Shown piece after piece: positions 27,604 through 44,888 of a stretch of DNA of 64,000 nt. The stretch is from Candidatus Saccharimonadales bacterium. Its GTDB lineage: Bacteria; Patescibacteriota; Saccharimonadia; Saccharimonadales; EFPC-124. The translations under genes and the position numbers were made by a program. Position 1 is the first letter of the stretch, and every line of letters begins with the position of its first letter. The stretch lies in the NCBI GenBank assembly GCA_050730875.1, contig JBOHNX010000001.1, forward strand, positions 297,972 through 361,971. The letters run 5' to 3'. The notes beneath the pieces are model-generated. The model made no database searches, had not been told where the DNA came from, and saw nothing but the letters and a program-made list of their open reading frames with translations.

Positions 27604-27631
27604 AAATAGCCACCAAGTGGTGACATTTTTA

Positions 27632-27707
27632 TGGAGCCGGCTAAGGGACTCGAACCCATGACCCGCGGTTTACAAAACCGCTGCTCTACCAACTGAGCTA
27701 AGCCGGC
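27632..27707 (-). tRNA. tRNA-Thr (anticodon UGU), CCA encoded
   Basis: Acceptor GCCGGCT/AGCCGGC, anticodon stem GCGGT/ACCGC with loop UUUGUAA, T loop TTCGAGT. One U-U mismatch in the T stem. Confidence 0.85.
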
Positions 27708-27722
27708 AAAAACTACCAGTTA

Positions 27723-27751
27723 ATACTACCTAAAAACGACTATTTTTTCAA
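27723..27751 (-). promoter_or_regulatory. Candidate promoter for tRNA-Thr(UGU)
   Basis: Minus strand TTGAAA (27751-27746), 17 nt spacer, TAGTAT (27728-27723). Confidence 0.4.
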
Positions 27752-27776
27752 CTGTAATAACAGATGCATGAAACAC

Positions 27777-27805
27777 TTGAGAAAAAGCATAAAAACAGAT
27801 ACAAT
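27777..27805 (+). promoter_or_regulatory. Candidate promoter for the tRNA-Thr(GGU)/tRNA-Tyr pair
   Basis: TTGAGA (27777-27782), 17 nt spacer, TACAAT (27800-27805). Confidence 0.45.
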
Positions 27806-27828
27806 AGCCCCTGTTATACGGCACATGC

Positions 27829-27903
<75 letters not shown>

Positions 27904-27905
27904 TG

Positions 27906-29561: not shown

Positions 29562-29592
29562 TGTTTTCTCCTAACAAAAAGGACGGCTGGTT

Positions 29593-29692
29593 GTTCACAC
29601 AGTCCATAGCACGAAGCCATTTCCTGATACCAGCCGCCCATTTTGGGTCGGGAAATAAAAACACTTCGTGCGTGTTTATGGCTTGTGTGAAC
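29593..29692. repeat. Imperfect inverted repeat upstream of the recombinase gene
   Basis: GTTCACACAGTCCATAGCACGAAG (29593-29616) versus the reverse complement of 29664-29692, GTTCACACAAGCCATAAACACGCACGAAG. Confidence 0.45.
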
Positions 29693-29729
29693 ATTTTTAT
29701 ATTAACTCGTTAATGTTTGATTGTACATA

Positions 29730-30245
29730 CTAGTCGCTTTGTTCTCTCATCAGCTCTACAACTTTTAAGTATCGCTTGGTAGGTTGACCACTATAGGTTC
29801 TAGTTCGTAAGTGCTTCATGTGTTTTTCGGCTCGTTCATATCTATCAAGCTCTCTCTGCATGGGGTAGATTGCTGAACGCCTGCTTCTTTTGCGTGATCG
29901 GTATGTAAGATTGTGACAGTGCCTACACCGATATTGTCCGATGAGGTACAGCTTGCCAACTCGCCGATTACATGTTGGACATAACATCCACCATCTTACA
30001 CCGCCGAAATAGCATGGTGTTTGAGTTAGGTGTATGGTTTGGGTTCGCTCCAAATTTTCATCCGGTGAATAGGTTATCTTTATTCTAGGACTCTCTCCTA
30101 AGATAACTAGCACATCCGCCGTATGGTCTTTTCCGTAAACCGTAGTCGTTAGCGTAGTCTGAAATCCATTTTTGAAGAAAATATTTTCGTTAGCCACGTA
30201 CACTAATGTATCTAATTCAGTCTTTCTTGCGTCGGATCGTGTCAT
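29730..30245 (-). CDS. Hypothetical zinc-ribbon protein
   Basis: CYFGGVRWWMLCPTCNRRVGKLYL..YRCRHCHNLTY (CxxC..CxxC) with a basic tail. Confidence 0.5.
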   Translation of the reverse strand: MTRSDARKTELDTLVYVANENIFFKNGFQTTLTTTVYGKDHTADVLVILGESPRIKITYSPDENLERTQTIHLTQTPCYFGGVRWWMLCPTCNRRVGKLYLIGQYRCRHCHNLTYRSRKRSRRSAIYPMQRELDRYERAEKHMKHLRTRTYSGQPTKRYLKVVELMREQSD

Positions 30246-30284
30246 AGAAAACGCCTATATACGAAATCATTAGCAATTCGTTTA

Positions 30285-30503
30285 TTAACCAGATACAGAA
30301 ACATCGTCTTTTTGCTCCATTTTCGTTAGTTTTAACTGTCTTTTACGTGTTTCTTTAGCTAGTGCAAACCTCATAATTGCTAGTCCTGCTTGCTGTGCTT
30401 GTTCGTCGCTGTAGTCCAGCCCAATATCTTTAAGCAATTCTTTTAAGGTGGTTAGACGTTCAGGCTTGAGTCGCATAGTAAGCTCCAAATATCGCCCGAA
30501 CAT
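30285..30503 (-). CDS. Small helical protein (possible DNA-binding/excision accessory factor)
   Basis: 72-aa ORF (or 63 aa from the Met at 30476). No motif recognised. The function given is a guess from size and context. Confidence 0.35.
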   Translation of the reverse strand: MFGRYLELTMRLKPERLTTLKELLKDIGLDYSDEQAQQAGLAIMRFALAKETRKRQLKLTKMEQKDDVSVSG

Positions 30504-30644
30504 CCTTACAACCTATATTTATCCTTAAACAGACCTTTATAAAGGTAAGTATCGTTATAGAGATACCCTTATATATACAGTTATCTATATATAGAGGCTG
30601 TTTAATATAAGAATATAGGCGGGGTTTCTTTTGTGTTTTCATAG

Positions 30645-30995
30645 CTAGAATGGCACGTCATCAAGGTTTATAGGTTCTTCTAGATCCTTGTCAGTTGGCT
30701 CGTACACTTTGTCGTGTTGTTTTGGTGACGGATCGTAGTCTCCGATGGCTTGTAGGCATTTCTCCTCAAGCCGTGCCCAGAAGTCGGTCTTTGTACTAAA
30801 TTCTGGCACGTGTATCCATTTATGGTTTATTTGCTGTGCGGGTGGTTGTACCCAATAACCCGAAGTGTTACGGTCAGATTCTCGGGCGGTAAAGCCGTCC
30901 ACATACATTCCAATGCTAGTTACATTTACTTTCAGGCGGTATCCTTTGTTAATCTGTCCCCGTACCTCAATCTCAATGCCGTACTCGTCATCCAT
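30645..30995 (-). CDS. Hypothetical protein
   Basis: Start chosen at the ATGGATGA overlap with the upstream stop (30988-30995). The ORF track start at 31031 is less likely. Confidence 0.45.
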   Translation of the reverse strand: MDDEYGIEIEVRGQINKGYRLKVNVTSIGMYVDGFTARESDRNTSGYWVQPPAQQINHKWIHVPEFSTKTDFWARLEEKCLQAIGDYDPSPKQHDKVYEPTDKDLEEPINLDDVPF

Positions 30996-31257
30996 TGCAA
31001 GCCTCCAGAATTTCATCCCGAATATGGTCAAGCTGTACGGCTAGGTTATCTATCAGTTCTTTTGCGTTTGAGTCTGCAAGATCAATAGAGACACTGGCAA
31101 GCTCATGTTTAGCTTGTTGCTCAAACATGTCATTTACTGCTAATCCAAGCCTTAGGTGGTAAGCAGGGCTCTTCCACTGGTCGCCAACCTTTCTCTGTAC
31201 CAAATATCCATACAACTTATGGTGTTGGATACGCCACTTTTTATAAATTATTGTCAT
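30988..31257 (-). CDS. Hypothetical protein
   Basis: 89-aa ORF, translationally coupled to the next gene. Confidence 0.45.
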   Translation of the reverse strand: MTIIYKKWRIQHHKLYGYLVQRKVGDQWKSPAYHLRLGLAVNDMFEQQAKHELASVSIDLADSNAKELIDNLAVQLDHIRDEILEACNG

Positions 31258-31273
31258 TTTGTCTTTCTGGCAT

Positions 31274-31298
31274 AAAAATGCCCGTTATGTTTACGGGC
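31274..31298 (-). terminator. Intrinsic terminator after the 31332..32051 gene
   Basis: Minus strand GCCCG-TAAACATAA-CGGGC followed by ATTTTTAT. Confidence 0.5.
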
Positions 31299-31331
31299 TT
31301 ATTTCTATAACTATAGGTAGCTGAAAAGTTT

Positions 31332-32051
31332 TCAGCCGTTTTCTAAGAGTTCAGGATCAATGTAGAAGATTAACTTCGTTATTTTTATAAGGTTTCTGCC
31401 ATCAGTAACCTCTTTAAGCTTCTGGTTTATTGCAGCGACATGATTTTTCGCTTGCTTACGTTGAAAGGGCTTAAGTTCATCGTTAATAACACCTCTAGAA
31501 TTCACAATTTTTCGCAGTGGGACACCATTTTTTAGGCTATTGACGTCATTGAAGAGAAGACGCATTGCACGTGCTTGCATAGGCTCATTTCTGGGATTGC
31601 CAAGCCTGTTCTTTTGACTAACTATTGCGACCTGTTTTCCATTAATAAACAGAGTCGCTGTATTAGCTTTGTAGCTCTGTGGTGTAAGCTTTCGCTCTGG
31701 GCTAAGGTTAGACTCGTAGAATTTACTAAAGCTGGGTAAAACCTCAATATGAAAATATGAGTCAAAGTAGTCAGGGTCTTCAATGACTTCATCACCTACC
31801 ATTTGGAGTAAAGTAGGGTGTTCGCGTTTTGGCTTGGGGATTTCGTCGTACGGTGGCTTTTTTACTGCGATGTGCCCAGAAGATTGTAGCTTATTCAGTG
31901 CATATCTAAATTGAGCATGGACGTCTCCATCAAAAACCGTGTAGACTGCCCCATAATCAAGTTTTATAGTGTTGCCATCTGTTAGTTCGTTTATGCTGTG
32001 GATACGCTCCACAAGCCATCGCATTCTCTCAGCCGAAGTTTTCAAAGCCAT
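31332..32051 (-). CDS. Hypothetical protein
   Basis: 239-aa ORF with no recognised motif. Confidence 0.5.
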   Translation of the reverse strand: MALKTSAERMRWLVERIHSINELTDGNTIKLDYGAVYTVFDGDVHAQFRYALNKLQSSGHIAVKKPPYDEIPKPKREHPTLLQMVGDEVIEDPDYFDSYFHIEVLPSFSKFYESNLSPERKLTPQSYKANTATLFINGKQVAIVSQKNRLGNPRNEPMQARAMRLLFNDVNSLKNGVPLRKIVNSRGVINDELKPFQRKQAKNHVAAINQKLKEVTDGRNLIKITKLIFYIDPELLENG

Positions 32052-32111
32052 ACTATGATTTTAGAGCAGTATCTACTCTTATCAAACCAATGTATGCAAT
32101 AATAATTGTTA

Positions 32112-32272
32112 AGTGGTAGCACCACTCATGATCTAGAGCCGCTCGCAAGAGAAGGTATGATCAAAAATCCGGTAAAGAATACTGAGCTAGTCGTTCAGGT
32201 ATCTTTACCGGTTGCACGCCGAAAGGTGTGTAGGGGTCGCAAGACTCCGCTTGGCGGCTAGCTTTTTGTTTG
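32112..32272 (+). ncRNA. Candidate structured RNA / 5' leader with multiple GNRA-capped hairpins
   Basis: Hairpins at 32112-32126, 32142-32151 (GCAA loop), 32169-32211 (~15 bp), 32215-32230 (CACGCC-GAAA-GGTGTG) and 32233-32248 (GGGGTC-GCAA-GACTCC), then a T-run at 32263-32271. Confidence 0.3.
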
Positions 32273-32307
32273 TCGCCGAACATTATTGACAGTAAAGGCG
32301 GCAACGA

Positions 32308-32985
32308 ATGAAAAAGCTTGGTTATTGGAAGTCACGTAAGGAATGGAAACGGCTAACTCAGGGCATGAGTCCCGATCAGGTCACCCGGCTCAAGCAAAGT
32401 CTTTCACAAGGCGACGAAGCTACAATTGCAGCTATTGCTGAAATACAAGCAGAGCAAAGAGAAGCCTTGCATGCTCAAGGCATAGATTACGGCAATACTA
32501 CACCCGAAATTGGGAAGGAAATACAGTGGAGTGATGTTTTGAGCATGGTGTTCCGTGTTATAGATTTTGATAGGAATGACACTACTGTAGACCTAGATGG
32601 TGGTGCAGAAACAGTAAAAGCAAAAAGCCAATTTCAACCTTATGGGTACCTACTTATTGAGTCACCCACGCTGAACCAACCTGTTGGATTACCGATAGTA
32701 CACAATAATGACTACTGGCTTGCTGCAAGCGTTTTTGATGATCCTGATGTTATTCGAGTTAAAGAGGAGCAAGGTAGAGAGCTCCTTGTTACCTATCAGC
32801 CAGAAAAAACTTTACGTGATGGACGCAACGGAAGTATGCAACACTGTTTGCACTTCGCACTTGTACCGTCAGGAACGTTAGAAAGATATTACGAAGACGA
32901 CAAACGAATGGCTAGACCAGAGCCAGAATTATTATTTGGAAAGTTTGTTTATAGTGGTGAAATAAGAGTGCGTATGGCAGCGTAG
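32308..32985 (+). CDS. Hypothetical protein
   Basis: 225-aa ORF with no recognised motif. Confidence 0.5.
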   Translation: MKKLGYWKSRKEWKRLTQGMSPDQVTRLKQSLSQGDEATIAAIAEIQAEQREALHAQGIDYGNTTPEIGKEIQWSDVLSMVFRVIDFDRNDTTVDLDGGAETVKAKSQFQPYGYLLIESPTLNQPVGLPIVHNNDYWLAASVFDDPDVIRVKEEQGRELLVTYQPEKTLRDGRNGSMQHCLHFALVPSGTLERYYEDDKRMARPEPELLFGKFVYSGEIRVRMAA

Positions 32986-33001
32986 CCCTATAATTAGCCC
33001 T

Positions 33002-33592
33002 ATGCAAAACAAACCTAACTCCACATTATTGTTCCGTCTTTCAGATGAACTCATAACCAACTTCACTTCTATAGATGGAAAACGACCTGTTTTCTATTGG
33101 TTCAGCGACTGTTATCACAGTCACATCTACGGAAACTCACCGGGAGCAGACTTTATGTACTTCTTCATTGTTGATCCGGCGAAAAGCGACGCCAAGTTAT
33201 TTACTCGTCACGACACAGGAGATTTTGGAAGCATGTGGGTTGATTACTCGCAGTATCTTGAAGCACGTAATGAAAATGAGAAACAAGGCATCAAGAAGTA
33301 CCTTGAGCCCGGTATCGTCTACTCATTTAGCGAACTTCAACCGGCTGTAGTCGGCAAGTTTGTGGACGGTTTCACGCTTTGGGCAAAGACAATAGACGAG
33401 TCAAAAGAGGTGACCTTTAGTTTGGTTGGGAATGGCAAGTTCAGGCGATTTGATGAGATACCAGAGCTAATAGACCTACTGCCCGAGATTGCTAGTGCCG
33501 TGCCGGTTATGCAGCCTACATCCGAGCAAGTCGCTGATCCGTCTAGCTTCTGGGCTGCCGATACATCCAATCAGGGTCGGATGTGGCTATAA
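33002..33592 (+). CDS. Hypothetical protein
   Basis: 196-aa ORF with no recognised motif. Confidence 0.5.
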   Translation: MQNKPNSTLLFRLSDELITNFTSIDGKRPVFYWFSDCYHSHIYGNSPGADFMYFFIVDPAKSDAKLFTRHDTGDFGSMWVDYSQYLEARNENEKQGIKKYLEPGIVYSFSELQPAVVGKFVDGFTLWAKTIDESKEVTFSLVGNGKFRRFDEIPELIDLLPEIASAVPVMQPTSEQVADPSSFWAADTSNQGRMWL

Positions 33593-33595
33593 TTC

Positions 33596-34249
33596 CTATA
33601 CTAAGTGTTCAGTGCCTTTGACCACATCAACCACCTTACCGGCGACTTGATAATGCTGAAAGTCTTCGTTAGCGATAATAATCGGAGGATAAGGATAGTG
33701 CGATTCAGACTGCAGTACTACCCGTTGGTGGGCATCATCCCTCTGGAACTTCTTAATATTAGCCATGCCGTCAATGATGGATACAATATAGTCATTTTTA
33801 TCCGGTACGTATGGGTCACGTTTTTCGACCAGTACATAATCACCGTCTTCAATTGTTTTACCGTTGATGTTTGCTCTGTTCATTGAATCACCACGAGCGA
33901 CTAACGAGTATACGCCTTTTGTGGTGCTAATTTTGGTGGTGCTAGGAGAGAGTGTCAAATAACCCTGAATAACATCAGATGCGAAGCGAGTAGCTTCACC
34001 ACAATCAGCTTCGCCGAGAACCGGTATTGATAGTACATTGTTTTGGAGGAGACCCGGACTTTTTGTTGATACCACCAACGAGCCGTCGGTCTTCCGGGAT
34101 AGGTAGCCGTTCTTAATCAGCTGGCCGATATGGTGCTGGACTTGTGAGGCGTGTTTGCAGCTCACTCGCTCACCAATTTGGCGGTATGACATACTACCGA
34201 GGTCAACCAGAGAACCGAGACTTAACAGCCTTTTTTGTACTTCATGCAT
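33596..34249 (-). CDS. LexA/CI-like repressor (wHTH plus S24 peptidase domain)
   Basis: N-terminal wHTH (YRQIGERV..ASQVQHHIGQLIKNGYL). S24 catalytic Ser in ARGDSM and Lys in ANIKKF. Start moved to the Met at 34249, downstream of the predicted promoter. Confidence 0.8.
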   Translation of the reverse strand: MHEVQKRLLSLGSLVDLGSMSYRQIGERVSCKHASQVQHHIGQLIKNGYLSRKTDGSLVVSTKSPGLLQNNVLSIPVLGEADCGEATRFASDVIQGYLTLSPSTTKISTTKGVYSLVARGDSMNRANINGKTIEDGDYVLVEKRDPYVPDKNDYIVSIIDGMANIKKFQRDDAHQRVVLQSESHYPYPPIIIANEDFQHYQVAGKVVDVVKGTEHLV

Positions 34250-34260
34250 CTTCACCCCTG

Positions 34261-34298
34261 ATTGTATCAGGTTTCTGGACACTGTACAATCCTGTACA
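34261..34298 (-). promoter_or_regulatory. Repressor promoter overlapping tandem CTGTACA operators
   Basis: Minus strand TTGTAC (34289-34284), 17 nt spacer, TACAAT (34266-34261). CTGTACA at 34282-34288 and 34292-34298, each containing the TGTACA palindrome. Confidence 0.4.
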
Positions 34299-34529
34299 TT
34301 TACAATGCGCTACCGGTATGGTATTGTTGAACTTAACCTAGCTATAAAACGCAAAATTCTTTTGTCGAGGGTAGTTACGGGGAGCGGCGCAAGCCACGTT
34401 CGTTAAAAAGGCGGACTATGAAAAAGCACCGGCTTTTGGCCGATGCTAGCGTACACCGTTGGTACCGAGTACGCTTCTTAGTCTACTGTAACCAATCATT
34501 AATGGCCAGACTAAGGAGGAATAACACCT

Positions 34530-34763
34530 ATGGCTCACAAACCTAACATTCATACGACCTACAGCAAACAGGCCAGTAACTGGCGTAACGTCACCGAAGG
34601 CGCAACCCGCCCGGGCAAGACATACGAGACCAAGCAGCAGGCTCAGGCGGCCGGACGTGATATGGCTAAAAGCCACCACGTTGAACACTTGATTCACAAT
34701 AAAGATGGTGAAATTGGCTCCCGTAACAGCTACGGCCATGACCCTAGAAATGTAAAGGGGTAA
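34530..34763 (+). CDS. DUF2188 family protein
   Basis: W.V..EGA.R....Y.TK.QA..AGR..AK......L.IH..DG.I......YG.DP pattern. RBS AAGGAGG. Confidence 0.7.
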   Translation: MAHKPNIHTTYSKQASNWRNVTEGATRPGKTYETKQQAQAAGRDMAKSHHVEHLIHNKDGEIGSRNSYGHDPRNVKG

Positions 34764-34766
34764 ATC

Positions 34767-35252
34767 ATGTCTGCTGATACTGCACTTACGATCACTCAGA
34801 TCGTGTGGCCACTACTGGGCGGCGTATTTGCCGCGTCGGTTTGGCTTCGCTTCTTTCACAAGAAGGAGCGTCGGCTCTTCAAGAACATCCAGCGACCTGT
34901 TGCTGTTATAGCCACCGACGACAAACCTATGACTCATGAAGTTCAGCTGCTCAAGCGTGTCGGCTTCTTCAACATCGGTACTCCATCTGCGGATGGACGA
35001 GCGAAGGACTTACTTAACGGCAATCGTCTTGTAGTTATTGGCTACAGTCCTAACTCCAAAATCTTCAAAGAGGTGTTCGCTGCGGCCGCACAGCGAGAGA
35101 TGCCAGTAATAGTCTATGCTGCACCCGGTGAGATTAGGCCGGAAGACATTAAGCTTTTACAGGGCTATTCTCATCACTCAATGTGTAATACCCCGCTACG
35201 CCTTATATCTGATGTATTTGCCATGATGAGCACGTACCCGGAGGACAAGTAG
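34767..35252 (+). CDS. Single-pass membrane protein with cytoplasmic alpha/beta (flavodoxin/TIR/receiver-like) domain; candidate effector
   Basis: TM segment ITQIVWPLLGGVFAASVWLRFF, then alternating beta/alpha segments (VAVIATDD, LVVIGYSP, MPVIVYAAPG). The fold assignment is a guess. Confidence 0.45.
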   Translation: MSADTALTITQIVWPLLGGVFAASVWLRFFHKKERRLFKNIQRPVAVIATDDKPMTHEVQLLKRVGFFNIGTPSADGRAKDLLNGNRLVVIGYSPNSKIFKEVFAAAAQREMPVIVYAAPGEIRPEDIKLLQGYSHHSMCNTPLRLISDVFAMMSTYPEDK

Positions 35253-36272
35253 ATGACCGATGAAGCGATAAATCAAGTAGTTAACAAGTACGTAAAAGAC
35301 AACCTGTCTCCTAAGCCCGCCCAGCGAGACTTCATTACCGAAAAATACGAAGAACTTAGGGGTTTTCTGGGAGGTCGCTGCTTTCAGTCAGGCTCTTACG
35401 CCCGCTACACAGCAATCGATCCTGTGCATGACTTGGACGTCATATATCCCGTAAGTGATGCCTCTGTTAAGGATAATCCCTCTCTGTTGCTGCGGAACCT
35501 GCTAGCAAACTTACAGCTGAAGTACAAAAACTCAACAACTAAAATCAAGCGGATATATGCACAGACCCACTCTGTAACCATCGAGTTTGAGGGATCACCT
35601 GAAGAAACTTTCAGCATTGATGTTGTGCCCGCCATCGAACTAGCAGAAAAAAATGATTATGAGCAGCCGCTGTATCAGGTGCCTGAAATTGTCAAACTAA
35701 ACAAGCACAACCGCGAGGAACGGTATAAAAACGCTTCAACTAATCCTATTGGTTGGATCAAATCTGACCCCCGTGGTTATGTACAAGCTGCTTACGAATT
35801 GAACGATTTAAATGCGAATTTTCGACACGCCACCAAATTACTCAAGGGCTGGAGACATGCTTGCAAGATCGCTTACGGGGATAGTTTTCGTCTCAAATCT
35901 TTTCATCTTGAGCAGATAGTTTATGCATACTTCGTCGAAAATCCCGGATGTACCACCGTAGAGGCTGTAATTGATTGCTTGGCCGCCTTGCCGGGCGACA
36001 TAAACGAACCACAGTTTACGGATCGTGCGGATGCTACTCGTTATATTGACGAGTACGTTGCCGGGCTAAGCCGGGATGAACGACAGTTAATCTTGCGCCT
36101 ACAGGCTGAAGCTTTCTCTTGCGTAAGGCAGATACCTGCCTCGACCGACGAGCAAGCAATAATTCACTGCTTAGAGTCACTCATAACCGTCGACAAGCAA
36201 AGCTCTATGACACCTGTATTCGCCGCACCATCACCACGTTCGGTTGCACCCCATCAACCTTGGGCGTGCTGA
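35253..36272 (+). CDS. CD-NTase/SMODS-like nucleotidyltransferase (pol-beta superfamily)
   Basis: GS motif QSGSYARYTAI, DxD in HDLDVIY, third acidic residue in FSIDVVPA, then GWIKSDPRGY...ATKLLKGWRH, typical of cGAS/DncV-like enzymes. Confidence 0.7.
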   Translation: MTDEAINQVVNKYVKDNLSPKPAQRDFITEKYEELRGFLGGRCFQSGSYARYTAIDPVHDLDVIYPVSDASVKDNPSLLLRNLLANLQLKYKNSTTKIKRIYAQTHSVTIEFEGSPEETFSIDVVPAIELAEKNDYEQPLYQVPEIVKLNKHNREERYKNASTNPIGWIKSDPRGYVQAAYELNDLNANFRHATKLLKGWRHACKIAYGDSFRLKSFHLEQIVYAYFVENPGCTTVEAVIDCLAALPGDINEPQFTDRADATRYIDEYVAGLSRDERQLILRLQAEAFSCVRQIPASTDEQAIIHCLESLITVDKQSSMTPVFAAPSPRSVAPHQPWAC

Positions 36273-36283
36273 GCGAGCATGGC

Positions 36284-37012
36284 ATGTGGACTAAGAGCGA
36301 TCTAGCTTGGCTTAGTAAGAACTACCCTGAACTCAAGCAAAAGCAGCCCAATACTATTGAGGGCAGACTGACTTTTCAGATGCTACGAGCCAACGGGCTT
36401 TACGTGGTAAATCCCTCAGCTAAACAAATTCAGGATCTTTCGCCTCCAGACTACCTTTACTTGTGCGACACGTACAAAATCCGGATTGCATGGCCTAAAG
36501 ATGCCCGTTTTCCGACAGCCCACGAAACCGGAGGCAAACTAGCGGCAACAGCGAAACGACTTAATAAAAATCTGCTGGATATGCATCAGTACCAAGAAGA
36601 TGGCAGCCTTTGCTTGGCTGCAACTATGCAGCTAGAGCGTACCTTTCGTAAAAAGTTCAAGCTTGATGCGTTTGTTGAAGAGTTCATGATTCCTTATCTA
36701 TTTGCGCAGACCCACTATGCTAAGACCGAGGAATGGCTGTGGGGTGAACTAGAGCATGGATCTTGGGGTCTTTTACAATGGCTTGGCCGGGAAAAACAGT
36801 ACGATGATGCAGATACTTTTGCGACCTACGCCTATGTTAAAAGTCAGATAGGTGAAGATGCTACCCATAAACTTTTGAAGATTCGACCGCGTGGTCACTA
36901 CGCTTGTCTCTGCGGATCAGGTAAGAAAACACGCGACTGCCATCCCGACGTCCAACAAGGCATAATTAGGCTTCGGGGTGCGGTAAGTCGTCATATTATT
37001 AAGCTCAATTAG
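36284..37012 (+). CDS. E2/UBC-like protein with C-terminal SEC-C zinc motif
   Basis: HQYQEDGSLCLAA resembles the UBC HPN...G.ICL active-site loop. C-terminal CLCGSGKKTRDCH is the SEC-C motif (compare SecA CPCGSGKKYKQCH). An alternative GTG start at 36266 overlaps the upstream stop. Confidence 0.55.
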   Translation: MWTKSDLAWLSKNYPELKQKQPNTIEGRLTFQMLRANGLYVVNPSAKQIQDLSPPDYLYLCDTYKIRIAWPKDARFPTAHETGGKLAATAKRLNKNLLDMHQYQEDGSLCLAATMQLERTFRKKFKLDAFVEEFMIPYLFAQTHYAKTEEWLWGELEHGSWGLLQWLGREKQYDDADTFATYAYVKSQIGEDATHKLLKIRPRGHYACLCGSGKKTRDCHPDVQQGIIRLRGAVSRHIIKLN

Positions 37013-37027
37013 TTTTACAATGGGTGT

Positions 37028-38221
37028 ATGTTCACTCACCTAAAAGACCGGCAATATTACGAAGACCTATATGATAAATTTACTGTGGAGTCAGCTCGTC
37101 GTGGTATGGTTTACTACGATGATTTTTATGCCGACTTTGAAAACAAACTTCCGAAGGGTGAGAAGATTGATAAGCCCGGCAACGCTTTCCTATTGAATGT
37201 CTTCTATATGGAGACTGTAGGAAACGAGCTGCTTCGCCGCTACGAAAAGCGTGGTGAACAAATCAGTGAATGGATTGAGAGAGACGAAGCGAAAAATGAA
37301 CAAATATCATCAGCTCGACTTTCTGAAGAGCCTCGCTGTCAACATTGTGGCAAGCAAGGGCTACGAATTACAGACAAATCACTCATGCATAGGAGTAAAA
37401 GCTACAAAATCGGTGACCCTGAGGAAGTGCTTTTCATGTTGCGATGTCCTCATTGTGACAAGAACTGCGCATTTTGGGAGGACGGTACAGCGTGGAAGGT
37501 TAAACCAACTATATGTCCGAGGTGTAAGTCTGAAGTAACGCACAAGACCACAAAAACCAAGAAGACCATTACGATTACATACACATGCATCTCCTGTAAA
37601 CATAGCTTTAAGGACAAACTGGACTTATCCAGCGAGAAAGAGAAACCTGACCCCGATTTTGACAAAGATCGCATCCACTTCTGTCTCGTAGACGAGGAGT
37701 TTCGCGAACGACTCTTCAAAATGAGGCATGACTTTATAGAGATGGCTCGGCTCGGCAAGGAGTTCAAAGAAAAGAAAGACAACAAGCACATATACGATGC
37801 CGTAAAAGAAATGAAGAAGCCAAAGATTGCCGAATTGTCTGCCATACTTGCTCCAGCACTTGAAAAGGCCGGTTACATTGAGTTTAGTCTTGATAAACCA
37901 GAAATGGGTAAAGATGTATTCATCGGCTTTAACTGCCTTGATTGTAAAAGCGACCGCGGCGACTATGATAGCGAGAAGACTCTGAAGAAAACTGTAGAAA
38001 AAGCCCTGATTAGTACTAACTGGCGGTTAATGAGCGAGGGTATCCATTACCGACTTGGTTACCTGAACGGGCGGTTGCGTGCATATGAGCGTGAAGAAGA
38101 TCTCAAGAATCTTGTAATAAAAGATAAGAGGCTAAAACCCAAAAGCAGTCATGCTACTAAGCCAGACAAGGATAATTCATGGCGGCTTAAAGCCAACGAT
38201 GGAACTGACATCCTCTTATAG
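37028..38221 (+). CDS. Multi-zinc-ribbon protein of unknown function
   Basis: CQHC..(x34)..CPHC and CPRC..(x21)..CISC, plus a later CLDC, within a K/E-rich helical region. Confidence 0.5.
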   Translation: MFTHLKDRQYYEDLYDKFTVESARRGMVYYDDFYADFENKLPKGEKIDKPGNAFLLNVFYMETVGNELLRRYEKRGEQISEWIERDEAKNEQISSARLSEEPRCQHCGKQGLRITDKSLMHRSKSYKIGDPEEVLFMLRCPHCDKNCAFWEDGTAWKVKPTICPRCKSEVTHKTTKTKKTITITYTCISCKHSFKDKLDLSSEKEKPDPDFDKDRIHFCLVDEEFRERLFKMRHDFIEMARLGKEFKEKKDNKHIYDAVKEMKKPKIAELSAILAPALEKAGYIEFSLDKPEMGKDVFIGFNCLDCKSDRGDYDSEKTLKKTVEKALISTNWRLMSEGIHYRLGYLNGRLRAYEREEDLKNLVIKDKRLKPKSSHATKPDKDNSWRLKANDGTDILL

Positions 38222-38408
38222 ACGGGGGTGCTATTTTTCTGGGTTAAGTGAGATGGTACCTAAGCGCATCTAGGGGGTGTGGGGTGTTGCCTCAGAAATA
38301 ATTTTAAGAGCACAGCCACCCCTGTTAGTTTGCTTGCCTTTCTCTGTTCTAAACTGTAGAATAATCAAGTAGCATTGTTCTGACCTTGCAAAGAACAGTG
38401 CACCAATG

Positions 38409-40976: not shown

Positions 40977-41873
40977 TTATTGTAACGAATTTAAGAACTT
41001 CTGTAGCTCGGGCGGCAGCGGCGCACTAAATGTTTTGCGTTCCCGTGACGGTAAGGTAATTTCTAGCTCGGCAGCGTGCAAAAACATACGCGGCAATCCT
41101 TTTGCCTTGTGACCGTATAAGGCGTCTCCGGCGATTGGGCAGCCTAAATAGTGCATATGCACCCGAATTTGATGTGTTCGCCCTGTAAGGGGCTTAAGCC
41201 GCACGAGACTGTAATCTCTAAAATAGTTTTCGACTTCGTAGGCTGTTTCTGCCGGCTTACCACTGGCACCTACCCGGAATGTCTGCGGTTTTTTAGGGTT
41301 GCGCTCGATTGGGAGCCGTATGATGGCTGCATTTTCGGCTGGCTGGCCTTCTACAAGCGCCAGATAGGTCTTTTTGGCTTTACGAAGACTAAATTGTCGC
41401 TGTAACCAGCGTTTTGCTTCGTTATTTTTGGCAGCGATCAGCACTCCAGAAGTTTCACGATCTAACCTATGCACAATGCCTGGCCGATTGCTTTCGGGGC
41501 CATCAGTAGTTTGCGGGCGCATAAAGTCTGCAACCGTGAATTCTGGATTAAATGCGCCTTTGGCATGCGTGAGGACGCCGGCTGGTTTATTAATAACTAT
41601 TACGTCGTCATCTTCGTATAGTACCGGGAGTGTTTGGGTGCTGAAATCTGGCGACTCAGGCAGCAAAACAGTGATGACATCGCCTTCGGATATAGTTTGG
41701 CTAGGTTTTACGGGAGCATCATGAAGTAAAACGACACCTTGCTGGCAGAGTTTTTGCCAAGAGCTTCGTGAGTACTCTGGGTAGGCGCGCGCCAGAAAAC
41801 TATCAGCGCGCTCCCCCGTTTGGTCGGCTACGAATTTCTGCTGCATGGTTTTATGGTCGTGGGCGTAAGCCAA
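40977..41873 (-). CDS. rluD: RluA/RluD-family pseudouridine synthase
   Basis: S4-like N-terminus, catalytic HRLDRETSGVL, and LTGRTHQIRVH. Confidence 0.85.
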   Translation of the reverse strand: MAYAHDHKTMQQKFVADQTGERADSFLARAYPEYSRSSWQKLCQQGVVLLHDAPVKPSQTISEGDVITVLLPESPDFSTQTLPVLYEDDDVIVINKPAGVLTHAKGAFNPEFTVADFMRPQTTDGPESNRPGIVHRLDRETSGVLIAAKNNEAKRWLQRQFSLRKAKKTYLALVEGQPAENAAIIRLPIERNPKKPQTFRVGASGKPAETAYEVENYFRDYSLVRLKPLTGRTHQIRVHMHYLGCPIAGDALYGHKAKGLPRMFLHAAELEITLPSRERKTFSAPLPPELQKFLNSLQ

Positions 41874-43077
41874 CTGCCTGCTGCGTTTTCAAAAGCTGCG
41901 GTGCGGACAGCTCGCGTGCCTTGGCTTCGTCGGCTTCGAGCTTAGTAACAAGCTTTACTTCGTCCACTTTATCTAATTTGTTTTGATAGTCGGTCAAAAA
42001 GTCGCCAACAGCCTTTGCGGCAGCTTGCTTTAACTCACCGTAGCGTGTTTTACCTTGCCATTCGGTAATAACTGCGTGGATGTCGCGTTTTTGTAACATA
42101 GCGAGTATTTGCAAGAGGTTGGTAACGCCCGGCTGTTTGGCCCAATCGAAACGAATAACGCCTTCACTATCGGTCGTTGCGGCCATGATCTTCTTTGCGG
42201 CTTTTTCTGGCTTGTCGAGCAATAAGATGTAGCCAGCCGGGTCGGCGTCGGACTTGCTCATTTTTTTGGCAGGATTCCGCAGGCTGCGGATGCGCAAACC
42301 ACGGTCGAGGCCCGAGAATTTAAGCTGCTGCTTCCAGTTGACTGGCACAACCGGGAAAACACCTTCGCTAACTACATCTTTAAACTTTTCGTTCACGCGC
42401 AGCGCAATATCGCGGGTAATTTCGACGTGCTGTCGCTGGTCTTCGCCGACGGGCACATATTTGGCGCCGTACAGCAGAATATCAGCCGCCATGAGCACTG
42501 GGTATGTAAACAAGCCAACTGAAACATTAGTTGGTTGTATTTTATGGAGCTCCCCGGCGATTTCTTTCGCAACGTCTTTGCGATCAAAAATAAACAAGTT
42601 ACGAATATCGGCCACCGGGTGGTCAAAGAAGCTACCAAGCTTCTTAACGCGCGAAATGAGATTGTAGCGCTCTAGGACGCGTTTCACGGCTTTAATTTCG
42701 TCGTCTTCGATACCAGATTTATCTTTAAACTGCGTCATCCGGCGCATTTCGCCAAAATAGGTAAAGCAGCTTAAAATCCAGGCCATTTCTGAATGTGCGG
42801 GAACGTGGCTTTGCCGGTAGACAAGCGTTTGCTTGCTTTTAAGGTCAATTGCACCTGCAGCTACAAAGAATTTTATGTTTCGGATTGTGTTTGCGTAGAG
42901 ATCATCGTGATTAATAGGAGTAGTAAACGAATGCAAATCTGGCACAAACATAAAGATGTCGTGCGTGTCCTTGTGTTTGTGCAGCAATTCCGCCATTGGC
43001 TGGATTGCGCCCAGGTAATTGCCAAGGGTTAAAACATCGTTGGCACGTAGGCCGGTTAATACTCTATTTCGTTGCAT
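41851..43077 (-). CDS. trpS: Tryptophan--tRNA ligase (with insertion)
   Basis: TLGNYLGA (HIGH-region equivalent), KMSKS present (AKKMSKSD), class Ic architecture. Confidence 0.8.
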   Translation of the reverse strand: MQRNRVLTGLRANDVLTLGNYLGAIQPMAELLHKHKDTHDIFMFVPDLHSFTTPINHDDLYANTIRNIKFFVAAGAIDLKSKQTLVYRQSHVPAHSEMAWILSCFTYFGEMRRMTQFKDKSGIEDDEIKAVKRVLERYNLISRVKKLGSFFDHPVADIRNLFIFDRKDVAKEIAGELHKIQPTNVSVGLFTYPVLMAADILLYGAKYVPVGEDQRQHVEITRDIALRVNEKFKDVVSEGVFPVVPVNWKQQLKFSGLDRGLRIRSLRNPAKKMSKSDADPAGYILLLDKPEKAAKKIMAATTDSEGVIRFDWAKQPGVTNLLQILAMLQKRDIHAVITEWQGKTRYGELKQAAAKAVGDFLTDYQNKLDKVDEVKLVTKLEADEAKARELSAPQLLKTQQAVGLRPRP

Positions 43078-43106
43078 GGTGGTTATTATATAGAGTTGCC
43101 GTGGTT

Positions 43107-44237
43107 TTACATAGCGTGCATTTCTTGTTGTTGTTTGGCGAGCTGCATCAAGATGTCAAAGGTTTCGTGGATACCAATACTCCGGTCGGTTTGACTGGTA
43201 CCTGCGCCATTTTTGCCACCTTCATAAAGATGGCTTTCAAACATAATGGCACGTAAGGCTTGTAGTTGCCCGCGTTCTCGCAATTCGAGTATGTGATTTA
43301 GGCACTCGCGTTCGCCAATTTCATGTTTGCCGCCATGTGCTTCGGCGCCTCCATGGGAAGCGTCCAATCCCAGAGGAAAGCCATGGGTTGCCGAGGCCTC
43401 GGCAAACTCGCGGACCTTTGCTTCATACGCTTCGGGGGTGGGTACTGTCGAGCCGCCGCGCATAAGGATGCCTACATGCTGGTTGCCTCTTAAACGTAGG
43501 TGCTGTTCGTAGTTGCCTGTGGCTGCATTATGAAATGTTATCCCAAGCTCACGCTGTGCCTTTTTTGCGTTGGGGCTGTGTATGTACTCCCGGGCATTGA
43601 GCGCGTCGGTCAGGTTGCCGTCCGTACCATTTTTTACGAATAGTGGTATGGGCTTGCCATTTTGTTCGTCATGGCTAAACGCCGCCATTGCATCGCGCAT
43701 GTTGTTATCGGCAACGTTGCGCGCTCCACCCCACGCCATTGCGAGCATGTCGTTGTAGTACTGCAGTGGGCGCGGCGACATTACCTCAGTGGCAATTGGT
43801 AACCCCGTATTAACGATTGCTGTCATGAGCTCGTAGGCCTTTTGCGGGTTCGAATGCCCGAGACCACGCCATCCAAGCTTCGAGCGAGTTTTATCCTCAT
43901 TTGGACGCATAACGATCTCCAGATTGGTTGTCAGTAGTGGATCCGCGCGCAAGAATGTGACAAGGTTATTAGCATATTCCAAAACTGCATGGATACCGCT
44001 TTCGAGCACAAGGTCGTCAAGCGAGCAGGGTCCAACGATAACAATTAATTTGCGCGGATGCGGGTTGGTCGTGTCCATAATATCGAGCAATGCTTGGCGC
44101 GCTTTTAGCGTTACTTCCCGGCCCTCGGGACTTAAAGGGTAAAGTTCGCGCATTTCGTGCGGTTTTGGTATTCGTTCTATTTTGTTGAACCGATCGTGTT
44201 CCACCGTTACAGGGTGGTGTTCTTTTTGTAAGTGCAT
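43107..44237 (-). CDS. Class I 3-deoxy-7-phosphoheptulonate (DAHP) synthase-like protein
   Basis: Aligns by eye to E. coli AroG: IVGPCS, KTRS..GWRGL (AroG KPRT..GWKGL), VKNGTDG, LMRGG, DASH, FESHLYEG. Confidence 0.75.
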   Translation of the reverse strand: MHLQKEHHPVTVEHDRFNKIERIPKPHEMRELYPLSPEGREVTLKARQALLDIMDTTNPHPRKLIVIVGPCSLDDLVLESGIHAVLEYANNLVTFLRADPLLTTNLEIVMRPNEDKTRSKLGWRGLGHSNPQKAYELMTAIVNTGLPIATEVMSPRPLQYYNDMLAMAWGGARNVADNNMRDAMAAFSHDEQNGKPIPLFVKNGTDGNLTDALNAREYIHSPNAKKAQRELGITFHNAATGNYEQHLRLRGNQHVGILMRGGSTVPTPEAYEAKVREFAEASATHGFPLGLDASHGGAEAHGGKHEIGERECLNHILELRERGQLQALRAIMFESHLYEGGKNGAGTSQTDRSIGIHETFDILMQLAKQQQEMHAM

Positions 44238-44256
44238 CGCTTCCCTCCTTTTTCAT

Positions 44257-44283
44257 AAAAAAACCACCTAGCAGGTGGTTTAG
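44257..44283 (-). terminator. Intrinsic terminator 20 nt upstream of the DAHP-synthase start (attenuator terminator)
   Basis: Minus strand AAACCACCT-GCT-AGGTGGTTT followed by TTTTAT, then RBS AAGGAGGG and ATG at 44237. Confidence 0.65.
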
Positions 44284-44306
44284 TTTTTTAGCTGTCGAAG
44301 TGTCTT

Positions 44307-44390
44307 TTATATACTATGCCAGCCATGCACCAAACCACCACCTGTGCCGTGGAACCAAGAGTAGAAATTATTCATATTTAACGTTTTCAT
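44307..44390 (-). CDS. Candidate 27-aa leader peptide MKTLNMNNFYSWFHGTGGGLVHGWHSI
   Basis: ATG lies 9 nt downstream of the predicted -10 (near-leaderless). Contains the aromatic codon cluster Phe-Tyr-Ser-Trp-Phe. Lies between a promoter and a terminator. Confidence 0.4.
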   Translation of the reverse strand: MKTLNMNNFYSWFHGTGGGLVHGWHSI

Positions 44391-44398
44391 GCTTATTC

Positions 44399-44427
44399 AT
44401 CATACGCAAATTACTTTAGCTGGTCAA
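44399..44427 (-). promoter_or_regulatory. Candidate sigma70-type promoter of the leader/DAHP synthase/trpS unit
   Basis: Minus strand TTGACC (44427-44422), 17 nt spacer, TATGAT (44404-44399). Confidence 0.5.
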
Positions 44428-44437
44428 TTATATACAC

Positions 44438-44468
44438 ATAAAAAGCACTGGATTTTTCAAGCCAGTGC
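44438..44468 (-). terminator. Intrinsic terminator after rpsI
   Basis: Minus strand GCACTGG-CTTGAAAAAT-CCAGTGC followed by TTTTTAT. Confidence 0.5.
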
Positions 44469-44489
44469 CTCCATGGGCATTAAAGTGCC

Positions 44490-44888
44490 TTAACGCTTGC
44501 TGAACTGTTCTTTCTTGCGAGCGCCGCGAAGACCGTATTTCTTTGGTTCTTTTTCGCGTGGGTCGCGCATAAGCAAGCCGGCTTTTTTGAGCGTACCGCG
44601 AAGGTCGTCGTTCATGCCAGAAAGTGCTTTGCTGATAGCAAGCTTACAAGCATCAACTTGACCGCTTAAGCCACCGCCGGCAACTTTTAGCGTGATATCG
44701 TAAGCCTTTTCTTTGCCAATTAGGCGCAGGGGCTCTACGAGCTCGCTAAGCCAGGCTTCGTTGCCACAAAAGTACTCTTCGACCTTTTTGTCGTTGACGA
44801 CAATGTTGCCCTTGCCGCCCATGAGGCGAGCGCGAGCGGTCGATGACTTGCGGCGACCTAATCCGTAAAAATATTCGTTCTTTGCCAT
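44490..44888 (-). CDS. rpsI: 30S ribosomal protein S9
   Basis: GRRKSSTARARL start and a C-terminus ending in RKKEQFSKR. Confidence 0.95.
   Translation of the reverse strand: MAKNEYFYGLGRRKSSTARARLMGGKGNIVVNDKKVEEYFCGNEAWLSELVEPLRLIGKEKAYDITLKVAGGGLSGQVDACKLAISKALSGMNDDLRGTLKKAGLLMRDPREKEPKKYGLRGARKKEQFSKR

Follow-up and report, generated by a model that had tools for sequence, protein, structure and literature searches.

What kind of control, if any, is exerted by the short region that separates the ribosomal protein gene rpsI from a gene resembling that of DAHP synthase (DAHPS) and from trpS in a metagenome-assembled genome of Candidatus Saccharimonadales? The region, the DAHPS-like gene and trpS all lie on the minus strand of a stretch of 64,000 nucleotides (nt) of contig JBOHNX010000001.1, which was analyzed as a whole and is hereafter called the window. 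A preliminary description of this DNA had proposed that the region has the architecture of ribosome-mediated attenuation, and the elements on which it relied were confirmed base for base. A classical trp/phe-type ribosome-mediated attenuator that would sense charged tRNA-Phe, tRNA-Tyr and tRNA-Trp is favored here with a probability of about 0.8; the proposed architecture is supported by a short open reading frame (ORF), its cluster of aromatic codons, two alternative pairings and their spacing, all of which recur in relatives. What was computed directly from the sequences comprises the individual elements, the two helices that exclude each other together with their covariation, the spacing held across leaders, and the agreement of the sensed codons with the cargo of each operon.

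The leader unit in the window

The features of the leader unit are given below in their order of transcription.

44399..44427, minus strand: sigma-70-type promoter, TTGACC (44427..44422), 17-nt spacer and TATGAT (44404..44399), matching the consensus at 10 of 12 positions
44307..44390, minus strand: leader peptide ORF of 27 codons plus TAA, MKTLNMNNFYSWFHGTGGGLVHGWHSI, from ORF translation, with homologous short ORFs in 12 related leaders
44352..44366, minus strand: proposed regulatory codons 9–13, TTC TAC TCT TGG TTC (Phe-Tyr-Ser-Trp-Phe), the putative ribosome stall site
44349..44352, minus strand: segment 1, CCAC together with GC two bases downstream, pairing with GUGG inside segment 2 in a fold of leader nt 1–64
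44329..44339, minus strand: segment 2, GGTGGTTTGGT, within leader codons 18–21, the 5' strand of the antiterminator, starting 17–18 nt past the T that opens the Trp codon
44288..44325, minus strand: spacer hairpin between segments 2 and 3 (GGCUGG...CAGCUA; leader nt 66–103), from minimum-free-energy and constrained folds
44274..44284, minus strand: segment 3, ACTAAACCACC, which pairs with segment 2 in the antiterminator and with segment 4 in the terminator
44257..44281, minus strand: intrinsic terminator (segments 3:4; hairpin 44281..44261), AAACCACCT-gct-AGGTGGTTT plus four more T, with a stem of 9 base pairs (bp) and a U7 run
43107..44250, minus strand: Shine-Dalgarno sequence AAGGAGGG (44250..44243) and DAHPS-like gene (ATG 44237, 376 amino acids), the gene that would be directly controlled

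The promoter is the top promoter-like site between positions 43000 and 45500, and the leader ATG follows 8 nt 3' of its -10 box; the near-consensus promoter, the near-leaderless 27-codon ORF and the Phe-Tyr-Ser-Trp-Phe cluster described beforehand are therefore all present in the window. Because so few nucleotides separate the -10 box from the ATG, the transcript is expected to be leaderless or near-leaderless, and the short ORF, which has no Shine-Dalgarno sequence, is most likely translated from such an mRNA. Other genes of the window likewise start 6–9 nt after a strong -10 hexamer (43077, which is trpS, 40969, 37028, 33002, 32051, 7863, 6476 and 814), and leaderless mRNAs seem, from this layout, to be common in the genome. 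The leader RNA is only about 135 nt long, and its ORF ends with a stop codon at leader nt 82–84.

The terminator closes with a 3-nt loop, has a folding energy of -11.1 kcal/mol as an isolated hairpin, and ends 20 nt before the ATG of the DAHPS-like gene, as had been reported. Its 5' arm was also said to pair with a segment inside the ORF; the antiterminator helix (segments 2:3) in fact extends over 11 bp and is mutually exclusive with the terminator, since it uses the same 5' arm. This pairing is found in the unconstrained minimum-free-energy fold of the leader, in which GGUGGUUUGGU (codons 18–21) pairs with ACUAAACCACC (the terminator 5' arm), and its duplex energy of -17.9 kcal/mol (RNAduplex) corresponds to p = 0.0005 against shuffles of the upstream sequence. 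The folding of alternative structures, which had been suggested as a check, yields two stable states, with -28.0 kcal/mol for the terminator state and -32.6 kcal/mol for the antiterminator state in constrained folds. A further hairpin between segments 1 and 2 is weak in the window (4+2 bp); on the attenuation model, segment 1 would be the analogue of an anti-antiterminator or of a pause hairpin. The spacer hairpin between segments 2 and 3 includes the leader stop codon together with a second Trp codon, W24.

Related leaders in other Saccharimonadales

Related loci, referred to here by L numbers, were sought through tryptophanyl-tRNA synthetase (TrpRS) in genomes and metagenomes and through the DAHPS-like protein of locus L002, the former because the DAHPS-like protein of the window is nearly an orphan. 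In total, 12 distinct related leaders were obtained from other Saccharimonadales contigs, 11 of them with a terminator; with the window included, the distinct leaders number 13, and a GC-rich hairpin and a U-run lie 3' of the short ORF in 12 (window, L002, L147, L148, L140, L143, L145, L146, L001, L082, L094 and L078), the exception being the L007-type leader. The absence of the ORF or of the pairings from relatives had been named beforehand as an outcome that would speak against attenuation; the ORF and both pairings are present in the related contigs whose leader has a terminator.

The nearest locus in a genome is L002, with 62% TrpRS identity and, directly upstream of trpS, a DAHPS-like gene of only 27% identity to that of the window. 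Its leader comprises a 25-codon ORF, MQAYQTSRFYFWFTYLSGRFVRSMS, with GGCGGTTTGT inside the ORF and the terminator ACAAACCGCC-ttcc-GGCGGTTTTTT. With the L002 DAHPS-like protein as the query, eight more proteins of 59–86% identity were recovered, and the contigs that carry them (L140–L149) mostly share the gene order of the window, rpoA-rplQ-rplM-rpsI-leader-DAHPS-like-trpS-rluD-holB-TPR (TPR, tetratricopeptide repeat). The leader peptides encoded 5' of the DAHPS-like gene in these contigs are as follows.

L147: MQAYQTSRFYFWFTHLPGRLVRSIN
L148 and L149: MHTYQTNRFYFWFSHSMRRFVCSIL
L140, L141 and L142: MSTNQTNRFYTWFTCAKRRFVRSVHH
L143: MRTFRQAFYFWFTAHH
L145: MQQFSQAFYFWFTAYY
L146: MQQSFNIAFNYWFTALTRAVC

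At the codon positions that match those of the window cluster, the relatives encode RFYFWF, RFYTWF, AFYFWF or AFNYWF, and Trp is located at codon 11–12 in all leaders that precede both a DAHPS-like gene and trpS. The L002-type leaders retain the Phe and Tyr residues through synonymous changes of codon (TTC/TTT, TAC/TAT). Conservation of the peptide is limited to this aromatic cluster; the N-terminus, the length (16–27 residues) and the C-terminus drift. The same arrangement of a -35 box, a 17–18-nt spacer, a -10 box and an ATG is found in the window, L002, L140, L143, L145, L146 and L001, with the -10 box ending 7–9 nt before the ATG and no Shine-Dalgarno sequence 5' of the ATG of the short ORF in these seven leaders. 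For L148, no -35/-10 pair could be fitted at canonical spacing, and the sole candidate -10 box, TATGAT, ends 6 nt before the ATG. In the relatives, the 1:2 helix, which lies around or next to the aromatic codons, is strong, and in the window it is weak; for instance, the helix spans 11 bp in L148 (CAAACAAACCG/CGGTTTGTTTG) and 9–10 bp in L002 and L147, and it is formed by ACCGC/GCGGU in L143, L145 and L146. The spacer is variable among the leaders, at 20–45 nt.

A separate short ORF of 14 codons, MRKLNTNKQSFW[HR]I, which is also leaderless, is conserved between rpsI and trpS in L005 (1212-1256), L007 (3911-3955), L089 and L099. It may represent a decayed attenuator or belong to another mechanism.

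Covariation and specificity of the pairings

Segment 2 (GGCGGTTTGTT; GGYGGTTTG) is conserved regardless of the reading frame: the leader ORF of L002 has it in frame, that of L146 has it in a different frame, and in L143 and L145 it lies 3' of the stop codon. For all 11 leaders evaluated together, segment 2 is the best duplex partner of the terminator 5' arm (RNAduplex), and its start lies 17–20 nt past the T of the first in-frame TGG. Shuffle p-values for the 11 leaders taken singly range from 0.0005 to 0.13; the antiterminator of L001, which was evaluated separately, has an energy of -19.1 kcal/mol with p = 0.001. A three-way compensatory change is seen between the window (GGTGG/CCACC/GGTGG) and L002 (GGCGG/CCGCC/GGCGG), in which all three segments change together.

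Paired positions were counted in an ungapped, hand-excerpted alignment of 13-nt blocks of segments 2, 3 and 4; whole leaders aligned with MAFFT lost their register around the terminator, and that alignment was left out of these counts. For the antiterminator, 85% of cells are paired and 8 of 13 pairs have double-sided changes, with none of 500 shuffles as good and with 34–57% of cells paired in slid controls. Similarly, 77% of cells are paired in the terminator, where 5 pairs have double changes. The consensus structure that RNAalifold gives for five complete leaders, aligned independently with MAFFT, is the 2:3 antiterminator helix.

The specificity of the arrangement was evaluated with descriptor scans, written in Python, of both strands of the window and of all 149 loci (2.07 Mb of scanned strand). 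The first descriptor combined a -10 box 5–10 nt before an ATG, an ORF of 8–40 codons with at least three aromatic codons within five, a segment 8–30 nt downstream that pairs with the 5' arm of a terminator, and the terminator itself; it returned 8 matches, and a relaxed version that requires only a Trp codon returned 13. All matches are among the leaders described here, with none outside the leader loci, and the co-occurrence of promoter, aromatic ORF, complementary segment and terminator is more than chance. A scan of the whole window found no Rfam family at gathering score around the leader, and at E <= 10 the interval 44100-44600 gave only sub-threshold Phe_leader and Trp_leader matches together with chance matches to small RNAs.

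Trp-rich short ORFs upstream of trpS were also sought in 80 genome loci, and most of those obtained are one recurrent pseudo-peptide, 'WWSVRDSNSPP', which was rejected as a leader. In the form WWSV(R/G)(D/G)SNSPP...ALP(D/N)EL, it occurs in L012–L066, from animal-associated Saccharibacteria, about 100–230 nt upstream of trpS; its sequence resembles a tRNA gene read on the opposite strand, as it starts with TGGTGG, the complement of CCA, and it is a trap for short-ORF searches.

Aromatic codons and operon cargo

The kinds of codons in the cluster follow the genes downstream. Leaders with FYxWF precede a DAHPS-like gene plus trpS (window and L002-type loci), and the cluster is smaller and centered on Trp in operons with trpS alone (rpsI-leader-trpS). 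For instance, L094 encodes MDNMNRNSWQTKAFCDGLFCVL and L078 encodes MANKSHIQSWQSADERDGLFRALN, with SW before trpS alone, and the trpS-only locus L082 encodes MAYYFSWRSSFLWR (YYFSW); each of the three has a homologous segment 2 (GATGGTTT...) and a terminator. The operon of L001, which consists of a prephenate dehydratase gene (pheA-like) and a DAHPS-like gene without trpS, is preceded by a homologous attenuator (L001:5014-5160) with the leaderless short ORF MQTKCMNLNGFFYNCFFEAVRPVSA, which is rich in Phe and Tyr (FFY..FF) and has no Trp codon. Its segment 2 is GAGGCGGTTCGG, followed by CCAAACCGCCTC...GGGGCGTTTTT; its terminator is CGCCTCGG-gaaa-CCGGGGCG with a U-run; the seryl-tRNA synthetase of L001 is 72–74% identical to named Saccharimonadales proteins. 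This match between codons and cargo is predicted by a codon-sensing leader and is hard to explain otherwise. Whether it extends further, such that the site is a member of an as yet undescribed, Saccharimonadales-wide family of leaderless attenuators in which the sensed codons were rewritten as the cargo changed, is a proposal with roughly even odds.

Proposed mechanism

Translation of the short ORF from a leaderless start, stalling of the ribosome, its coupling to the polymerase and a response to amino acids are inferred from these elements. Transcription would start no more than about 2 nt from the leader AUG, such that a ribosome could load on the leaderless 5' end and translate alongside the polymerase. 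If aromatic aminoacyl-tRNA were scarce, the ribosome would stall at codons 9–13 with its footprint over segment 1 and short of segment 2. The leading edge of a ribosome lies about 12–15 nt beyond the A-site codon, and with Trp-12 or Phe-13 in the A site it would stand just before segment 2. The free segment 2 would then capture segment 3 before segment 4 is made, aided by the spacer hairpin; no terminator would form, and read-through into the DAHPS-like gene and then trpS would follow. With a good supply, the ribosome would pass segment 2 and proceed into the spacer as far as the stop codon (leader nt 82–84), where, on the model, its presence on the spacer hairpin would block nucleation of the 2:3 helix. 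Segment 3 would then fold locally with segment 4, and transcription would stop at the U7 run, short of the gene by 20 nt, with a basal level of trpS maintained from its own promoter.

Several observations weigh against this mechanism. As naked RNA, the window leader prefers the antiterminator by about 4.6 kcal/mol, and this preference, together with the weak 1:2 hairpin, implies that termination would be decided by where the ribosome stands and by folding kinetics, not by a stable 1:2 helix. The stop codon of the leader ORF is located 20 nt beyond segment 2, and a ribosome there would leave segment 2 unmasked, unlike in Escherichia coli trpL; moreover, the second Trp codon in the spacer, W24, has no clear role. 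Among the relatives, the DAHPS-like gene of L144 has no leader at all, and L005, L007, L089 and L099, all with trpS alone, keep a short ORF without a recognizable terminator or antiterminator. The aligned blocks were chosen by complementarity, which biases the pair counts towards structure, and the sequences are related, such that shuffle statistics overstate their independence. Translation of the short ORF, its start site and termination at the U-run are themselves predictions from sequence. Finally, Pfam searches of the 64-kb window, including 29 further ORFs, found no other gene for the biosynthesis of shikimate, Phe, Tyr or Trp, so that a physiological sense of regulating a DAHPS-like enzyme is conjectural.

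Alternative explanations

Some of these observations could be accommodated if translation of the ORF controlled Rho-dependent polarity, the stability of the mRNA or access to the ribosome-binding site of the DAHPS-like gene rather than an intrinsic terminator. The short ORFs without a terminator in some trpS-only relatives would suit such control, as would the full-length fold of the window, in which the FYS codons UUUCUACUCUU pair with the Shine-Dalgarno region AAGGAGGGAAG; however, that pairing is not conserved, as the region pairs locally or not at all in relatives, whereas the hairpin and U-run follow the short ORF in all but one of the distinct leaders and the hairpin covaries with segment 2, so that this explanation is left with little probability. 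Even less probable is a genuine RNA switch that is set by a protein (TRAP-like), by uncharged tRNA (T-box-like) or by a small ligand, with the ORF incidental to it. Neither T-box nor any other Rfam family reaches threshold here, the leader of about 135 nt has no specifier-loop or T-box sequence, and the repeated (G/U)AG triplets of a TRAP site were not seen. It is true that alternative helices and covariation alone do not prove translation and that the short ORF has no Shine-Dalgarno sequence, but an incidental ORF would hardly hold its ATG at 6–9 nt from the -10 box wherever a promoter is readable, keep its Phe and Tyr residues through synonymous codon changes, or maintain the codon position of the aromatic cluster and its distance of 17–20 nt to segment 2, with codon kinds that track the operon cargo.

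The least probable explanation is that the unit is an independent gene for a small protein or small RNA, a chance neighbor of a DAHPS-like gene that is transcribed from some other, unrecognized promoter. Separate transcription of trpS is indeed clearly possible in L078, L082 and L094, where TATAAT stands right before trpS and 3' of the terminator. In the window and in the L002-type loci, by contrast, there is no -10-like consensus between the terminator and the start of the DAHPS-like gene, and this gap of 20–35 nt is filled by the Shine-Dalgarno sequence; furthermore, peptide conservation is confined to the aromatic cluster, and an independent gene would leave unexplained why a segment complementary to the terminator 5' arm is present in any frame or outside the ORF. 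Ribosome-mediated attenuation by the leader peptide accordingly remains the preferred reading.

The DAHPS-like gene and trpS

The DAHPS-like protein matches Pfam PF00793 (DAHP_synth_1) with 78.1 bits against a cut-off of 25.5, and it is below the NCBIfam cut-offs for TIGR00034 (aroFGH; 117.6 against 173.2) and NF009395 (132.6 against 343). Its alignment with yeast Aro4 (PDB 1hfb) pairs GPCS/GPCS, KTRS/KPRT, GAR/GAR and KNGTDG/KNGTDG and, further on, RGG/RGG, SHG/SHG, FESH/IESN and TDRSIG/TDACIG; by comparison with AroG and Aro4, these motifs are presumed to hold the Cys, His, Glu and Asp metal ligands and the Lys and Arg residues that bind phosphoenolpyruvate. The protein is probably, to judge from these motifs, an active but very divergent type I-alpha enzyme. 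A homologue search returned four proteins, namely the protein itself, entered as a hypothetical protein and 100% identical, one of 34% identity and two Pseudomonas DAHP synthases of 29–30%, and the nearest DAHPS-like relative (33–34% identity; L001:6001-7014) lies in the prephenate dehydratase-DAHPS operon of L001. An earlier suggestion, to check whether the rest of the shikimate pathway is encoded, could be followed within the 64-kb window, where no further gene of the pathway turned up; relative L001 has prephenate dehydratase beside its DAHPS-like gene. Searches of the literature for the shikimate pathway or for chorismate in Saccharibacteria returned nothing relevant.

The DAHPS-like proteins of the window (43107-44237) and of the L002 type (L002:2687-3943) share only 24–27% identity and occupy an identical slot in the locus, whereas ribosomal protein S9 (75–79%) and TrpRS (49–64%) are conserved between the same loci. 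This difference suggests that the gene was displaced, or was acquired separately on two occasions, in the slot between a single conserved leader and trpS. A canonical-looking DAHP synthase C-terminus (...VYGQSITDECIGLEDTETILAMLSKAVEVRRSK) is encoded directly upstream of trpS at L086:100-354, on a Saccharimonadales-like metagenome contig that is too short to show a leader; the linkage of DAHPS and trpS is accordingly wider than the two divergent DAHPS-like lineages.

The second gene of the unit and its own -10 box are located as follows.

43085..43090, minus strand: -10 box TATAAT of trpS, 7 nt before the ATG at 43077, a putative internal promoter of the leaderless type
41851..43077, minus strand: trpS, tryptophan--tRNA ligase of 408 amino acids, TIGR00233 with 262 bits against a cut-off of 176.75

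An equivalent -10 box, TGTATACT, is found 5' of trpS in L002, L140 and L143–L148, and many relatives without a leader before trpS have TATAAT 7–13 nt upstream of its ATG. From this layout, trpS is likely transcribed constitutively as a leaderless mRNA, and with a -10 box of its own it can only gain additional expression from the attenuator, which would mainly govern the DAHPS-like gene. Two claims of the preliminary description need to be narrowed on this account: the statement that another promoter would not fit is right for the DAHPS-like gene and wrong for trpS, which has the TATAAT at 43090..43085 before its ATG, and an attenuator applied to both genes stands for the DAHPS-like gene, with trpS only partly dependent on it. 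The TrpRS of the window, at 408 amino acids, is about 75 residues longer than the 328-position TIGR00233 model; a long TrpRS (404–411 amino acids) is also encoded in L002, L140 and L082, as compared with 349–352 in L143–L146 and 360 in L148.

Genomic setting

The Pfam search of window ORFs placed rpoA, rplQ, rplM and rpsI 5' of the leader, such that the order in the window is rpoA-rplQ-rplM-rpsI-leader-DAHPS-like-trpS, followed by RluD-like, HolB-like and TPR genes. The rpsI gene ends with a stop codon at 44490 on the minus strand and is followed by a terminator of its own.

44440..44468, minus strand: intrinsic terminator of the rpsI unit, GCACTGG, 10-nt loop, CCAGTGC and T5, read directly from the sequence

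The terminator scan missed this structure because its loop exceeds 8 nt. It sets the leader apart as a separate transcription unit. The possibility that the hairpin at 44281..44261 serves as the rpsI terminator was rejected, since rpsI has its own at 44468..44440, 5' of the leader promoter.

Elsewhere in the window, positions 27600-38300 form a probable integrated mobile element or defense island. It contains tRNA genes (27635-27995), a serine recombinase (27906-29561, minus strand) and a LOOT RNA (RF03000; 32130-32248, 69.7 bits). An S24/LexA-like peptidase (33596-34282) and, at 35253-36272, a SMODS nucleotidyltransferase are also encoded there, along with several ORFs that match nothing in Pfam, and its GC content is 0.42–0.46 compared with 0.47–0.50 in the flanks.

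Significance and comparison with known systems

Saccharibacteria are usually described as unable to make amino acids. If the attenuator operates as proposed, these ultra-small epibionts with minimal genomes would couple transcription and translation and monitor the charging of tRNA, and Saccharimonadales would regulate genes by amino-acid supply. Some soil Saccharimonadales would, moreover, retain under regulation the enzyme that opens aromatic amino-acid synthesis, perhaps with a functional pathway behind it, even though the group generally counts as auxotrophic; a regulated and very divergent DAHP synthase is thereby flagged in a lineage that is usually called auxotrophic. The related leaders would provide a compact natural example of attenuator codons re-tuned with a change of cargo, and they could seed a covariance model for the annotation of candidate-phyla genomes, as no Rfam family covers the element. 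A full-text literature search found no paper that joins leader peptide, transcription attenuation and candidate phyla radiation.

Leader-peptide attenuation is textbook knowledge for Proteobacteria and is known in Actinobacteria. The leader of the window resembles trpL and pheL (pheA, pheST) of E. coli in its short ORF, where codons for the regulated amino acid cluster, in its segments 2:3 (antiterminator) and 3:4 (terminator with U-run), together with a putative 1:2 pairing, and in the proposed control of a biosynthetic operon or of an aminoacyl-tRNA synthetase gene (pheST). The sensed codon of trpL precedes segment 2 by about 17 nt, which is similar to the 17–20 nt in the leaders described here. 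In contrast to the E. coli leaders, the ORF of the window has no Shine-Dalgarno sequence, starts 8 nt past the -10 box and is probably leaderless; its cluster mixes Phe, Tyr and Trp rather than repeating one amino acid; its stop codon lies past segment 2, in the spacer that precedes segment 3; the 1:2 helix is weak; and its host belongs to Saccharimonadales, within the candidate phyla radiation. The window leader is also below the Rfam thresholds for RF00513 Trp_leader (16.0 bits against 41) and RF01859 Phe_leader (19.4 against 55).

T-box leaders of Firmicutes (trpS and aromatic genes) similarly act on comparable target genes, where uncharged tRNA brings about read-through of a terminator, but the leader of the window is too short for a T-box and has no specifier loop, and sensing would proceed through translation of codons. 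No T-box match was found at E <= 10 in 44100-44600 or at gathering score in the whole window. In mycobacteria, leaderless polycysteine short ORFs are Cys-responsive attenuators (bioRxiv 10.1101/834739), which are alike in being the first cistron of a leaderless mRNA whose codons report amino-acid supply to a downstream operon. They differ in that Cys is sensed, and the candidate cys leader peptides of Mycobacterium lack obvious terminators (PMC1262725), whereas the window has a canonical intrinsic terminator and an antiterminator.

Two parallels in cargo come from Actinobacteria. In Streptomyces, trpS and leuS have classical attenuators in front of them (Seliverstov et al. 2005, PMC1262725); the one before trpS combines a Trp-codon leader peptide with a terminator and an antiterminator and is closest to L078, L082 and L094, but the window leader is separated from trpS by a DAHPS-like gene, trpS has its own promoter, and sequences and lineage are unrelated. 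In Corynebacterium glutamicum, the leader peptide aroR (Phe-Tyr-Phe) precedes the aroF DAHP-synthase operon (Neshat et al. 2014, via PMC11802643). In the account given there, aroR shares with the window a mixed aromatic motif and a DAHP synthase in first place, and its read-through is raised by stalling, as is proposed for the window; AroR as described in that account has no Trp codon, the operon has no trpS, and the host belongs to Actinomycetota (PMC11802643). The DAHPS of the window is, compared with aroF, very divergent and type I-alpha-like, and aroR is likened to the window leader here by its description only. The attenuator of the window is therefore classified as a known type of mechanism, in which the lineage and the combination of DAHPS and trpS as its cargo are new.

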